This document shows, piece after piece, positions 1 through 14,754 of a stretch of DNA of 14,754 bases (its first letter is position 1; the number at the start of each line of letters is the position of its first letter). The DNA is from a virus (Duplodnaviria > Heunggongvirae > Uroviricota > Caudoviricetes). Both the position numbers and the translations under genes were made by a program. The stretch is taken from the IMG/VR virus record IMGVR_UViG_2617270963_000012. One strand, written 5' to 3'. The notes beneath the pieces are model-generated. The model did no database searches, was not told the DNA's origin, and worked only from the letters and a program-made list of their open reading frames with translations.

Positions 1-432
1 GATGTGTTTGCCGGATACATCGTGGGGTGGCGGGTCTCATCGTCCATGGAAACGACATTCGTGCTGGATGCACTGGAGCAGGCGTTATGGGCCCGTCGAC
101 CGTCCGGCACGGTCCATCACAGTGATAAAGGTTCTCAGTATGTATCGCTGGCCTACACACAGCGGCTTAAGGAAGCCGGATTACTGGCATCAACAGGAAG
201 TACAGGCGACTCGTATGACAACGCGATGGCGGAGAGCATCAATGGTCTTTACAAAGCGGAGGTAATACACCGTAAGAGCTGGAAAAACCGTGCAGAAGTG
301 GAACTGGCCACACTCACGTGGGTGGACTGGTATAACAATCGACGATTGCTGGAAAGGCTGGGCCATACTCCTCCGGCAGAAGCAGAAAAAGCTTATTATG
401 CTTCCATCGGAAACGATGATCTGGCAGCCTGA
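1..432 (+). CDS. IS3-family transposase OrfB (DDE catalytic domain), 5'-truncated by the window edge
   Basis: Open frame runs in from position 1 to TGA at 430-432. Translation contains ...[10 protein letters not shown]...[20 protein letters not shown]..., i.e. the final acidic residue of a DDE triad followed seven residues later by K, the E-x7-K/R signature of IS3-family OrfB. The C-terminal tail ...[23 protein letters not shown] is also typical of that family. Exact IS name cannot be assigned without a database. Confidence 0.8.
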
Positions 433-439
433 GTTCACA
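1..439 (+). mobile_element. Right-hand part of an IS3-family insertion sequence; right boundary approximate (about 433-445)
   Basis: Transposase reading frame ends at 432 and scaffolding-protein-like coding sequence resumes within a few bases (gttcaCA|gataaaacactctcc). IS3-family right ends terminate in CA. The left end and any target-site duplication lie outside the window. Confidence 0.55.
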
Positions 440-898
440 GATAAAACACTCTCCAGGAAACCCGGGGCGGTTCATGTCGAACAGCAGCAGCAACAAAAAC
501 TACGTCAGCAACAGGAATACCAACAGCGTTTCCAGCAAAGGGTAGAAGCGCATAAACAACGGGCAGCCAAACTTCCTGTGAAAGATTATCAGGAAATGGA
601 GGCCATTGTTCTTAGTGAGCTACCACCAATTCAGCAGGAAATCATCATTCACTGTGCAGACGAAGGCTCTGAACTACTCGCCTATGGCTTAGGTAAGAGC
701 CAGCAATTACGCCAGCGTGTAGCCGCTGAGACAGATCCAATTCGCGCAGCATTCCTCTTGGGGCAGATTAGCAAACAGGTAAGCCTTGCTCCAAAACCAA
801 AGAAAGCCATCAAGCCAGAGCCGGAAGTACGTGGTGGCGGTGCTGATGCGAAACAAGACGAATTCAACAAATTATGCCCCGGCGCAAAAATCGAATAA
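434..898 (+). pseudogene. Phage scaffolding protein, C-terminal fragment of about 150 aa; 5' portion displaced by the IS insertion
   Basis: Frame of ORF 290..898. The region ...AAKLPVKDYQEMEAIVLSELPP...SELLAYGLGKSQQLRQRVAAE...KQVSLAPKPKK... has the Q/K/E-rich helical character and the position immediately upstream of the coat gene that P22 gp8 has. The ORF portion upstream of about 433 is read-through of IS sequence in another frame. Confidence 0.7.
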
Positions 899-909
899 GG
901 AAAAGATAA

Positions 910-11679: not shown

Positions 11680-11688
11680 TAAATATAA

Positions 11689-13479
11689 TTATTTCATCTC
11701 TATTGAAATTGAGCTAATACATGAGCTTGTGTCTGAGTTATATATTCTCACCTCGACATCAGGATAGGTTTTATCAATGTAGAAATCCATGTCAACTACA
11801 TTATTGATTTTAGCAATTAATTTTTTACCACCAAACGCTACAATATCACCTAATACATCACCTCTACCACTTTTTTCAATATGCATTTTATACATACCTT
11901 TCTTGAGAGGTTTGTATGGTCCTGTTACCAAGAATGTAGCACCGTCTTTTTTGCATACTTGAAATTCATCACTATAACCTAGAGAACCAAAGTATTTTGA
12001 ATTGGTTAACGTGTGAAAACCGGTAAATGGTATATTTATCCCGTCATTCCATACTAAGATAAACTTTGACATGACTTTATCAATTACATCAGGTCTTCCA
12101 TATTGCATTATTGCAGCGTCCATGTCTTCTTTACTATCAGCTATAATAAATGAATTGTTTTGCTCATAATTATTTATTTTAGCTAACCATAAAAATGGTT
12201 TTACACTTCCTTCATGGTTATTAAATACTACTGGCGATATCTCTGAACCACTATTTAATGAAACTGACGACGCAAACCAGAATGAAGCAAAACCTGCTTT
12301 AAGATTATGCTCCTTTATATATTTTGAAATATCATTAATTTCATGGTTTTTTTTATCTAATGAAATGGCGTTACCATAAATTATGGCACCGCTAACAAAA
12401 GACAAGGAAAGCAGGAATAAAGATGTTTTTTGGCTTATATTTACATTTCTACAAATAAATACAGCCCCGAAAATTACAGATGGAGCAATATATCTTATTG
12501 ATTCAACCGCTGATGGAATATTACTAAATAAGAATGCGCACGGCATTATAATCGCCGTAAGAAGCAAAGCTCTATCAATGGTTGAGAATCTTGTTATTTT
12601 TCTTGCATTAGAAGCAATGATGTAAACAAAGAACAATAGAAAGCACAGTCTAATTATGGATGAAAAAGACTGTAGCCCAATATCCATTCCAAAAAAATAT
12701 GCTTCGAAAAGACGTAATAAACCAACACATAAGAAATATAAGTTATTAATAAATTCTTCTTGTGTGGCAAACTTAGGATAACCTATTCCTGGCAATTGAA
12801 ATCCGCCAATTTCTTGCACGTAGTATAAGAGTGTTTTCGATAAAATAAAGGCAAGAAATATAGATGCCGCATAGTGCAGGTGAACTTTGTTTCGTTTGTA
12901 AAATAATTCAATTGCCAATGATGAAATTAAAGGTATCAAAAATGCGTATTTGCTTATGTCGTCGCTAAAAAATATGGCTAGGCTTAAGAGAAAAACAATG
13001 AGATAATGATGTATGTTAGCTTTGTATACAGTTGTTCTTTCTATTATAATATAAATAATTGCTGTATATAAATAAGCCCCAATATGTGATACGGCAAGGT
13101 TAAATATATTTGATGAATAAGCTCCTAGAATTCCAAATGAGAAGAATATTGCCCATGGCAACTTCTTTTTGTGATATGAAAGTATTATGCAGCATATTGT
13201 CAGAGCAGAAATAAGGATTGACGGAACTAAATATGATTGAACTTTATTACTGATACCTATTATATCCAGCAATGCATACCAAATAAGGTCTGTAAAATAG
13301 AAAGTTACGGTTGAAAGAAACCATCCTGAAAGTAGAATGTTTCCATTTGCTATGTCGTGTGAAATGATTACACCAGAAGCCTGATCAGAACTCGGGGTGT
13401 AACCATATCCAATGTAGCAATTCATCGCCACTAGAATAATAAACGAGATAAAAAGTAGTAATTTAAATCTTCTTGTCAT
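11689..13479 (-). CDS. GtrC-family polytopic membrane protein (596 aa); putative serotype-specific O-antigen glucosyltransferase
   Basis: Third gene of the gtr operon. Strong RBS AGGAG 7 nt upstream of ATG. Start overlaps the gtrB stop by 17 nt. N-terminal about 400 aa is very hydrophobic (about 10 or more predicted TM segments) and the C-terminal about 190 aa is hydrophilic. Markedly AT-rich by eye compared with the flanking genes. Confidence 0.7.
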
Positions 13480-14395
13480 TTATTTTCTCCTTTAAGATGT
13501 ATTTAGGTCTTGCCTTGGTTTCTATGTAAATCCTCCCGATGTACTCTCCAAGTACACCGATGCCGATTAGTTGGATCCCTCCAAGAAACAGAATGGACAC
13601 CAGCAGTGAAGGGTATCCTCGTACAGCATTTCCAAATGCGAGAGTGTCAAATATCATCCATGCGCCATACAGAAATGCTAGGCCAGCTACCACTAACCCG
13701 ATATAAGTCCATATGCGCAGGGGAAATGTTGAGAAGCTTGTAATCCCTTCGAGCGCAAGATTCCACAATTTCCATCCATTGAATTTTGAATTACCAGCAA
13801 CACGTTCTGCGCGGGAATATTCGACGATGTCTGTCGAGCCTCCTACCCAACTCAGTACCCCTTTCATAAAAAGGTTGCGCTCTGGCATAAGCTTGATATT
13901 TTCGACAACCTCACGGCTCATTAACCGGAAATCACCAACATTCTCTTCAATCTTTGGGTTGCTTATTTTATTGTGGAGCTTATAGAACCATTCTGCAGTC
14001 TTGCGCTTCAGTCTTCCATCTGTAGAACGGTCATAGCGCTTAGCCAGTACCATATCAGCCCCTGCCTTCCACTTTTCAATAAGATGAGGAATAACCTCAA
14101 TCGGGTCTTGCAGGTCAACATCAATTGGGATTATCGCATCCCCGTTTGCATGGTCTAACCCTGCAAATAATGCTGGTTCTTTACCAAAGTTGCGTGTAAA
14201 TGACAGCGGAACAACTAGCGGATCAGAAACAGCCAGAGCGTTAATGATTGACTCCGTAGCGTCTTTGCTTCCGTCATTTATGAAAACAATTTCCACTTCA
14301 TATGACTTCAACTCTTCGAATTCACGTACCGTTTTATAAAAAATTGGTATCGCTTCCTCTTCATTGAAGACAGGAACGACAAGAGATATCTTCAT
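13463..14395 (-). CDS. gtrB: Bactoprenol glucosyltransferase GtrB (GT2 family), 310 aa
   Basis: Translation [29 protein letters not shown]...[14 protein letters not shown]...[11 protein letters not shown]... matches conserved GtrB as I recall it, including GT2 DxD-type motifs and two C-terminal TM helices. ATGA overlap with the gtrA stop. Confidence 0.95.
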
Positions 14396-14754
14396 TTCGC
14401 ATCCCTAAAGACAATGAACTTTGAATAGACGAAACCGCACACCAGGCTGATGGCGGAGAAAGTGATAAGGGTGACCATCGGGGGAAGTGCGCATCTATCA
14501 GCAGCCCACCCGACGACAACACTCAATGTTCCCATGAATCCCACGTATAACAAGTAACGCATCGTTGTAGTCGATGCCTTGAATGTGAATTTTGCATTCG
14601 CGAAGAAGCTAAAACTCACAGCCACAACGAAACCTGCGAAGTTTGCCAGAGCCTGATTGGTATGCGCGGCATAGATACATACACCAAAAACCACCCAGTG
14701 TATAAGTGTGTTCAGCACACCAATCGAGGTGTACTTTGCAAATAGCTTTAACAT
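14392..14754 (-). CDS. gtrA: GtrA, small 4-TM flippase for undecaprenyl-phosphate-glucose (120 aa)
   Basis: 120-aa hydrophobic protein [31 protein letters not shown]... immediately upstream of, and overlapping, gtrB. The ATG coincides with the last three bases of the window, so the promoter and any phase-variation elements are outside it. Confidence 0.9.

Follow-up and report, generated by a model that had tools for sequence, protein, structure and literature searches.

An apparently recently inactivated P22/Sf6-like prophage remnant carrying gtrABC at the lambda attachment site of Escherichia coli

The locus and its source

The window analysed here is a stretch of 14,754 nucleotides (nt), filed as virus record IMGVR_UViG_2617270963_000012, whose genes are those of a P22/Sf6-like prophage. 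It is 100% identical to positions 2-14755 of contig JHDN01000022.1 (assembly GCA_000601155.1) and so starts one base from the end of the contig, which falls within an insertion sequence (IS). The GtrC protein of this assembly is labelled 'Escherichia coli 1-110-08_S3_C1', in agreement with a supplementary strain table that assigns JHDN to 1_110_08_S3_C1, JHDM to colony C2 and JHDL to colony C3 (PMC6222053). The three are commensal E. coli colonies from a single stool of a two-year-old Tanzanian child, all of sequence type (ST) 10, phylogroup A and O176:H33, sequenced on the Illumina HiSeq platform and assembled with MaSuRCA (PMC6222053). We consider it highly probable that the window is a dead, recently inactivated P22/Sf6-like remnant, marked by an IS-associated deletion and by tailspike lesions, in which the gtrABC operon has been kept without demonstrated selection. 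The anatomy of the locus is based on an open reading frame (ORF) listing, on Pfam, PHROG and NCBIfam scans and on comparison with phages Sf6 and HF4s, and the lesions were assessed against contigs that encode an identical GtrC, aligned to the window. Of the contigs compared, L004 is JHDM, L006 and L019 are JHDL, and L013 and L035 are the closed genome CP116919.1. The features on which the argument turns are the following (lengths in amino acids, aa).

1-474, plus strand: IS3-family element (IS629/IS1203 type), the 3' 474 nt of 1310 bp, with rve, rve_3 and rve_2 domains
475-898, plus strand: scaffolding-protein gene remnant, the last 424 of 885 nt, from Pfam Phage-scaffold profile positions 151-258 and alignment with Sf6 gene 4
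9535-9828, minus strand: mnt, ribbon-helix-helix repressor, intact (PF03869 Arc, E 1e-14; PF11423 Repressor_Mnt, E 3e-14)
9917-11536, plus strand: tailspike pseudogene with two lesions, Head_binding and Beta_helix domains, ATG at 9917
11689-13479, minus strand: gene in the gtrC position, 596 aa, 32% GC, intact, from homologues of 596-597 aa and an AlphaFold model
13463-14395, minus strand: gtrB, bactoprenol glucosyltransferase of glycosyltransferase family 2, 310 aa, intact (PF00535, E 8e-32)
14392-14754, minus strand: gtrA, flippase-like small membrane protein, 120 aa, complete (PF04138, E 8.8e-14)

Past gtrA, the sister contigs continue into attR, made up of the lambda P arm and core, and then into ybhB and the bio operon (bioA). 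The lambda att core GCTTTTTTATACTAA is found at both prophage ends, and in CP116919.1 attL consists of this core and the P' arm, followed by ybhC. These flanks place the prophage at the lambda attachment site, with ybhC on one side and ybhB-bio on the other; the window is its right-hand part, adjoining attR. Features of P22-like phages are present, namely a P22-type coat with a scaffold gene (PF09306) directly upstream, and the P22/Sf6 order is kept through the gp4-gp10-gp26 tail hub and needle genes, gp7-gp20-gp16 and a tailspike with the P22 head-binding domain. Gene content identifies the phage as a temperate mosaic, with a virion module of the Sf6/P22-like (Lederbergvirus) type and an int-xis-att module of the lambda type. 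Both hybrid att sites (L013 3033-3120; L005 8360-8530) appear intact, with lambda attP arms, int and xis joined to the P22/Sf6-type virion module.

An IS end in the scaffold gene and a probable large deletion behind it

The window opens with the C-terminus of transposase OrfB at 4-432, and the right inverted repeat of the element, ending ...CCCGGGGCGGTTCA at 474, abuts nt 462 of an 885-nt Sf6-type scaffold gene whose first 461 nt are missing. A preliminary description of this DNA had reported an IS insertion in the scaffold gene; the element does cut the gene at 474/475, but whether it was inserted there cannot be judged from a window that starts inside it. An ORF at 398-898 starts within the IS end, runs in frame with the scaffold remnant and is called as 160 or 166 aa; if expressed, it would hold the C-terminal part of the scaffold protein. 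In P22 the C-terminal part is the coat-binding part.

What lies on the other side of the element is seen in CP116919.1, which is 99.9% identical to window positions 1-11446, through the IS-scaffold junction; the junction itself is identical to the base in this closed genome and in all three colonies. Here the IS is complete (L013 8256-9565), measures 1310 bp with TGAACCGCCCCGGG ends and matches the NCBIfam IS3 transposase. Its right flank, TGTCGAACAG, lies in the scaffold gene and its left flank, ...GATTGATAAAAAC, lies inside an erf gene cut down to ERF-profile positions 58-146. The bases next to the element are AAC on the left (erf') and TGT on the right (scaffold), without a 3-bp target duplication, which argues for a deletion or for recombination between IS copies. 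Further left follow abc2, DUF5405, ea22-like and DUF551 genes, xis, a lambda-type int, attL and ybhC. In intact relatives at the same site (L033, L036), erf is followed by kil/cIII-type genes, N, a cI-type repressor, cro, cII and replication genes, and further along, as in L010-L017, by nin genes, antiterminator, lysis genes, terminase and portal. CP116919.1 is without this whole erf-to-scaffold segment: cI-type repressor, cro, cII, replication, nin, antiterminator, lysis, terminase and portal. Since the junction agrees to the base and the DNA around it is nearly identical, we infer that the strain of the window carries the same deletion, of about half the phage.

One may argue instead that the IS is a simple insertion in the scaffold gene, and that portal, terminase, lysis and immunity genes are intact on another JHDN contig. 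The window holds only the right end of the element, at a contig edge, and E. coli strain 405 (NZ_CM132957.1; L002 2786-4095) has, as a simple insertion in the same gene near scaffold codon 25, an IS that matches window positions 1-474 at 100% identity over its 3' 474 nt; this copy is flanked on each side by a duplicated ATC, and the portal gene before it is intact. Several points weigh on this side and against the large deletion. All three colony contigs stop inside the IS, and look-ups with two chimeric IS-scaffold ORFs matched only those contigs; a look-up with the DUF5405 protein matched intact relatives and CP116919.1, and the JHDN contig was not among the matches. The large deletion rests on one closed relative, CP116919.1, and that genome is a long-read assembly with homopolymer errors. 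Nevertheless, the same junction, to the base, occurs in a closed genome about 99.9% identical to the window, with erf' as its left flank and no target duplication, and we regard a simple insertion as improbable. The deletion reading, which we prefer, also shows how a draft contig that ends in an IS can hide the loss of about half a phage.

Frameshifts in int, ea22, gp16 and gtrC of CP116919.1 (the gtrC product, P0024, has 274 aa) were considered as further decay, or as loss of gtrC in a sister lineage, and rejected, being single-base losses in A5/C5 runs; the gtrC break, at an FF (probable T-run) site, is typical of long-read consensus error. The same genome twice has GCGACC where the window has GCAGCC (equivalent to 426-427 and 565-566), which resembles a motif-specific long-read error, possibly linked to methylation.

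The element is like the IS629/IS1203/IS3411 group in its 1310-bp length, its TGAACCGCCCCGGG terminal repeats with TG...CA ends, its two-ORF transposase of the DDE (rve) type, a programmed frameshift (annotated on the identical strain 405 copy) and the 3-bp duplication in strain 405. It differs in that the CP116919.1 copy lies at the erf'/scaffold junction without a target duplication, and annotated copies of IS1203 are about 95% identical, not identical, to the IS 3' end in the window. In DETEC-P829 (L003 2845-3207), a scaffold gene is truncated at window position 692 beside transposase fragments, strain F8 matches over the same span, and the DETEC-P829 tailspike is also split by an IS3 element (L003 12374-14075). 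Related Sf6-like prophages have been struck independently by IS3-family elements in scaffold and tailspike; target preference or simply gene size may be the reason.

Two lesions in the tailspike gene

An intact tailspike of this type has 596 aa (L005, L007, L008, L013). The window copy matches it through residue 510 and then continues for 29 out-of-frame residues, with 86 native residues lost, owing to a 161-bp deletion between two copies of the 12-bp direct repeat ATGGGTAATAAC, one of which is left as a scar at 11435-11446. The segment is present in L005, L007, L008, L009 and L013, and its deletion is common to all three colonies: JHDN, JHDM (L004) and JHDL (L006/L019). A 12-bp repeat is too short for assembly collapse and the sister colonies share the deletion, so we take it as real.

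The other lesion, already reported in the preliminary description, is a TAA at 9986-9988 in place of Lys24 (AAA in relatives), where the gene reads MSDITANVVVSMPSQLFTMARSF-TAA-AVANGK.... The T at 9986 occurs only in JHDN, the base being A in JHDM, JHDL, a metagenome scaffold, two Logan contigs and CP116919.1. Of the three colonies, all have the IS junction and one has the TAA. JHDN has one other private change, 14060 A>C in a synonymous Gly codon of gtrB. JHDL has 6148 T>G, which turns the gp7 stop into GAA for a product of 258 aa, and a G>T in bioD (L006 3368); JHDM has zero private changes across 21.8 kb. These four changes are all transversions, at about 1 per 7-9 kb (~1e-4 per base).

One reading is that the TAA is a sequencing or assembly error, in which case the tailspike lesion would be the 161-bp deletion only. 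Within-host clonal diversity is expected at an estimated 1 per million bases or so. The private differences among these colonies of the same ST, one of them in the housekeeping gene bioD, exceed this by far, which points to errors in the consensus or, with lower probability, to a mutator. The T in a single assembly of the three from one stool, and its position at a T4/A3 homopolymer boundary, point the same way, as does the estimated chance of about 0.03 that four of four changes are transversions if transitions make up ~60% of real substitutions. On the other side, consensus substitution errors are rare at normal depth in Illumina HiSeq data such as these (PMC6222053), such mutations are expected to build up in a dead gene, and a mutator allele may be present in the colonies. 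We hold an error at 9986 to be a quite plausible explanation, stopping just short of favouring it. Either way, the sequence marks the tailspike as dead whether or not the TAA is real, and its annotation should be corrected to two lesions, not one.

A further feature lies just beyond the tailspike.

11658-11680, no strand assigned: GC-rich hairpin, candidate terminator between the convergent tailspike and gtrC genes (terminator-like match, 10 pairs)

From its sequence and position, this hairpin is likely a terminator.

Order of events

CP116919.1 and the three colonies have the IS junction in common; the 161-bp deletion is confined to the colonies and the TAA to a single one of them, which gives the order of IS deletion, tailspike deletion and point change; we infer the order of the first two as the most parsimonious. 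In this scheme, an IS3 element of the IS629/IS1203 type would have brought about the loss of the DNA from erf up to mid-scaffold, either as an adjacent deletion or by recombination between two IS copies, and the functions for immunity, replication, late regulation, lysis, terminase and portal would have gone with it. A slipped or microhomology deletion of 161 bp between the 12-bp repeats would then have frameshifted the tailspike C-terminus. Finally, Lys24 would have become TAA in one colony only, as a real later mutation or as a sequencing error. The preliminary description of a decaying prophage is thus borne out and was an understatement, given two tailspike lesions and a closed genome with the same junction that is without the erf-to-scaffold genes.

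Selective retention or neutral decay

The preliminary description went further and proposed that host-beneficial functions had been selectively retained during domestication of the prophage, on the ground that both visible lesions fall in genes for particles. Scaffold and tailspike are indeed the genes struck, but the third lesion, the 161-bp deletion, had been missed, and the pattern is within chance. Virion genes make up 10,726 nt of the coding target in the window, and gtrABC with mnt 3,381 nt (24%), so that by target size the neutral chance that all lesions fall in virion genes is 0.58 for two and 0.44 for three. A distribution that equals the target-size expectation does not demonstrate selection: the lesion pattern is as neutral decay predicts, and selection is not shown by the pattern alone.

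The age of the lesions leads to the same point. Over 9.6 kb, 1-2 substitutions separate the window from copies whose tailspike is intact at the full 596 aa (99.98% identity), in line with the earlier suggestion that inactivation was recent, and the 2-3 substitutions in total against intact copies are too few for a ratio of nonsynonymous to synonymous rates (dN/dS). Divergence so near zero leaves no time for differential decay; judged by these comparisons, gtrABC, mnt and the other virion genes owe their intact state to the very short time elapsed. The other claims about intact genes hold, since mnt has both its Arc and its Mnt domain, the gtr genes are uninterrupted and tightly coupled, with a ribosome-binding site before gtrC, and the ejection-protein and needle genes are uninterrupted and of full length against Sf6 and HF4s. 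The claim that regulatory genes were kept holds for mnt, but not for the main immunity region, which lies outside the window and is probably deleted.

The case for domestication, in which selection would keep gtrABC and mnt while particle genes decay, so that every lesion falls in a virion gene, deserves to be set out in full. Besides the intact gtrABC and mnt next to a struck scaffold and tailspike, other decayed copies keep gtrABC (L023 with an IS in gp14; L026 truncated after gp10), 689 of 5426 complete E. coli genomes have gtrAB-like DNA against 243 with an Sf6-type coat, and gtr clusters persist both in K-12-type genomes (yfdGH) and in cryptic prophages of Shigella flexneri (PMC5596473). 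Several points stand against it. With gtr and mnt at 24% of the coding target, the probability of no hit is 0.44-0.58; about 2 differences per 10,000 bases from intact copies leave no time for differential selection; and gtr is no better preserved than eight other virion genes. The sample from which L023 and L026 come is biased, since the look-up was keyed on intact GtrC, and for this reason prophages sharing GtrC were rejected as a sample of decay states. The genome counts are megablast matches of unequal sensitivity, and the tailspike head-binding segment, at 1128 genomes, exceeds gtrAB; the counts were set aside as a retention test, since coats of other types escape them and the gtr number is raised by K-12 laboratory strains. 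Moreover, with arc, ant and the tailspike lost, mnt offers the host no obvious benefit. We therefore consider domestication at this locus rather unlikely, and recent neutral inactivation is the preferred account. It must be set against this account that gtr is retained in many cryptic prophages, which makes selection on gtr plausible by analogy, though the window locus does not show it. The wider lesson is one of caution in inferring selection from the placement of two or three lesions.

The gtrABC operon and a GtrC outside the curated families

The operon is compact. gtrA and gtrB overlap in ATGA, and the gtrC ATG lies 17 nt inside gtrB with GGAG 8 nt upstream; the gtrA ATG forms the last bases of the window, so that the gtr promoter lies outside it. 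In the sister contigs the operon lies between the tailspike gene and the att site of the phage, in the order tailspike, gtrC-gtrB-gtrA on the opposite strand, P arm of attR, ybhB.

The protein in the GtrC position matches no Pfam or NCBIfam family at E<=0.01, and only PHROGs of unknown function match it; the known GtrC family of serotype-specific polytopic membrane glycosyltransferases (Pfam Glucos_trans_II) is not among the matches. A homologue search returned 18 clusters in all, from E. coli, Salmonella, Enterobacter, Xenorhabdus and Citrobacter, with proteins 596-597 aa long that share 73% identity in Salmonella, 60% in Enterobacter and 56% in Xenorhabdus; the invariant residues include D32, H132, S172-D173 and R329-Y330. 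An AlphaFold model built with 15 homologues (predicted local distance difference test, pLDDT, 82.3; predicted template modelling score, pTM, 0.80) has a multi-pass membrane domain and a C-terminal beta-sandwich. In Foldseek searches the model matched the glycosyltransferase C (GT-C) enzymes STT3, PglB, AglB, ALG12, ALG9, DPY19, AftB and ArnT, with E down to 8e-6 and moderate template modelling (TM) scores of 0.4-0.46, and its beta-sandwich matched carbohydrate-binding modules. Predicted fold, position and operon context together fit a transferase of the GtrC type with a GT-C fold, the fold of transferases whose donor is a polyprenyl-phosphate-sugar. In such a pathway, GtrB would load glucose on undecaprenyl phosphate, GtrA would help in flipping, and the GT-C enzyme GtrC would carry out the transfer in the periplasm. 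From its sequence, gtrABC probably still glucosylates the O antigen, and it may well be of benefit to the host. The gtrC gene represents a small, uncurated GT-C family in E. coli, Salmonella, Enterobacter and Xenorhabdus, which would be worth naming once its sugar and linkage specificity is determined.

The block of gtrA-gtrB-gtrC, the 596-aa tailspike and mnt recurs nearly unchanged in P22-like prophages (L023-L032) at three sites: the lambda att site (ybhB-bio), argW (yfdC-intS) and a site adjoining dacD. Most copies of the block have complete virion genes, and the needle and coat alleles differ; the block behaves as a mobile receptor/anti-receptor module. A more ambitious synthesis may be sketched, in which the three colonies capture step-wise decay (IS deletion, 161-bp deletion, K24* in C1 and gp7 stop loss in C3) while a functional gtr operon, with an uncurated GT-C GtrC bearing a C-terminal carbohydrate-binding-like domain, modifies the O176 antigen, and the gtrABC-tailspike-mnt module moves among P22-like phages at three sites. 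As a whole, this picture would be possible but remains doubtful.

Relation to known cryptic gtr prophages

Remnants of this kind have precedents. K-12-type genomes keep yfdG/yfdH, as seen from matches in complete E. coli genomes, and E. coli K-12 CPS-53/KpLE1 (intS-yfdGHI) is a comparable remnant. The gtrI, gtrIC and gtrII clusters of S. flexneri are likewise P22-like or lambdoid remnants in which gtrA-gtrB-gtr(type) survives beside the att site, and cryptic gtr prophages of this species are devoid of genes for structure, replication and lysis, their breakpoints often being marked by IS elements (PMC5596473). An example is S. flexneri 1c strain Y394, where gtrI and gtrIC lie in prophage regions with transposases and without structural, replication or lysis genes, and the gtrI operon is conserved except for one point mutation (PMC5596473). 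In comparison with the S. flexneri clusters and CPS-53, the window remnant is much younger, being 99.98% identical to copies with an intact tailspike and having eight complete virion genes; it sits at the lambda site, not at argW or proA-adrA, and its GtrC is in no curated family. Retention of gtr in cryptic, IS-ridden prophages is thus already well documented, and the window is an unusually young example of the same kind. Its significance beyond annotation is small: it is one more P22-like serotype-converting prophage dismantled by an IS and small deletions.

mnt and the region in front of the tailspike

The mnt gene may start at its first ATG, for a product of 97 aa, or at the ATG at 9795, for one of 86 aa; where identical DNA has been annotated, the shorter product is mostly chosen, and relatives have identical 86-aa calls. 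One further feature lies between mnt and the tailspike.

9869-9891, no strand assigned: 23-bp near-palindrome ATGCAATCA-N5-TGGTTGCAT, candidate operator (repeat pair, 89% complementary)

The near-palindrome is 26 bp upstream of the tailspike start, and by sequence it could be the Mnt operator in phages without arc and ant. In P22, Mnt represses Pant, the ant promoter. The locus resembles P22 immI in having an mnt homologue with an Arc-type ribbon-helix-helix and a Mnt C-terminal tetramerisation domain, divergent from the tailspike side. It differs from immI in being without arc and ant, the ORF listing giving neither between the end of mnt (9828) and the tailspike ATG at 9917, so that only ~90 bp separate mnt from the tailspike start; moreover, only the 23-bp near-palindrome was found in the window prophage, and no P22-type operator. 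With arc and ant absent and a dead tailspike as the sole gene beyond the 90-bp intergenic region, mnt has no obvious host-beneficial function. A promoter scan of 9380-11760 gave a site count no higher than in shuffled sequence.

The remaining virion genes

Apart from scaffold and tailspike, all virion genes of the window are uninterrupted, with lengths equal to those in viable Sf6 or HF4s, and they are arranged as follows.

910-2181, plus strand: major coat protein, 423 aa, intact (PF11651 full length, E 3.5e-142; length as in the Sf6 coat)
2224-2409, plus strand: Sf6 gene-6-like small ORF, 61 aa (phrog_3251 full length; Sf6p06 is 186 nt)
2384-2866, plus strand: gp4-type head-tail adaptor, 160 aa, intact (PF11650 positions 1-159 of 159)
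2875-4293, plus strand: gp10-type tail hub, 472 aa, intact (PF11134 full length; length as in Sf6)
4293-4994, plus strand: tail needle of the gp26 type, 233 aa, intact (phrog_1219 positions 1-233 of 233; length as in the HF4s needle)
4994-5449, plus strand: gp14-type protein, 151 aa, intact (PF11039; length as in Sf6)
5452-6150, plus strand: ejection protein of the gp7 type, 232 aa, intact (PF25688 positions 1-230 of 230)
6153-7448, plus strand: ejection protein of the gp20 type, 431 aa, intact (PF16928; the Sf6 homologue is also 1296 nt)
7448-9445, plus strand: ejection protein of the gp16 type, 665 aa, intact (phrog_770 full length; the Sf6 homologue is also 1998 nt)

The exact coat protein is present in many intact prophages. 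As a particle-forming set the genes are incomplete, with the scaffold gene minus 461 nt and the tailspike frameshifted. Rfam and tRNA scans of the window gave no matches. Most of 475-10257 is 95-97% identical in nucleotides to Sf6, HF4s and many E. coli prophages, and the order scaffold-coat-gene6-gp4-gp10-needle-gp14-gp7-gp20-gp16-tailspike is the same as in the two phages, as are the gene lengths for coat, gp4, gp10, gp14, gp20 and gp16. The window copy differs from both in being dead, with an IS-halved scaffold gene and a frameshifted tailspike. In HF4s, gtrCBA is also present after the tailspike, but that phage has its own integrase adjoining gtrA, whereas the window prophage has lambda-type int, xis and att at the lambda site. 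Sf6, in contrast, carries oac where the window prophage has gtr, and has no annotated mnt between gene 13 and the tailspike. In comparison with both phages, the receptor-binding part of the window tailspike and its gtrC are other alleles.

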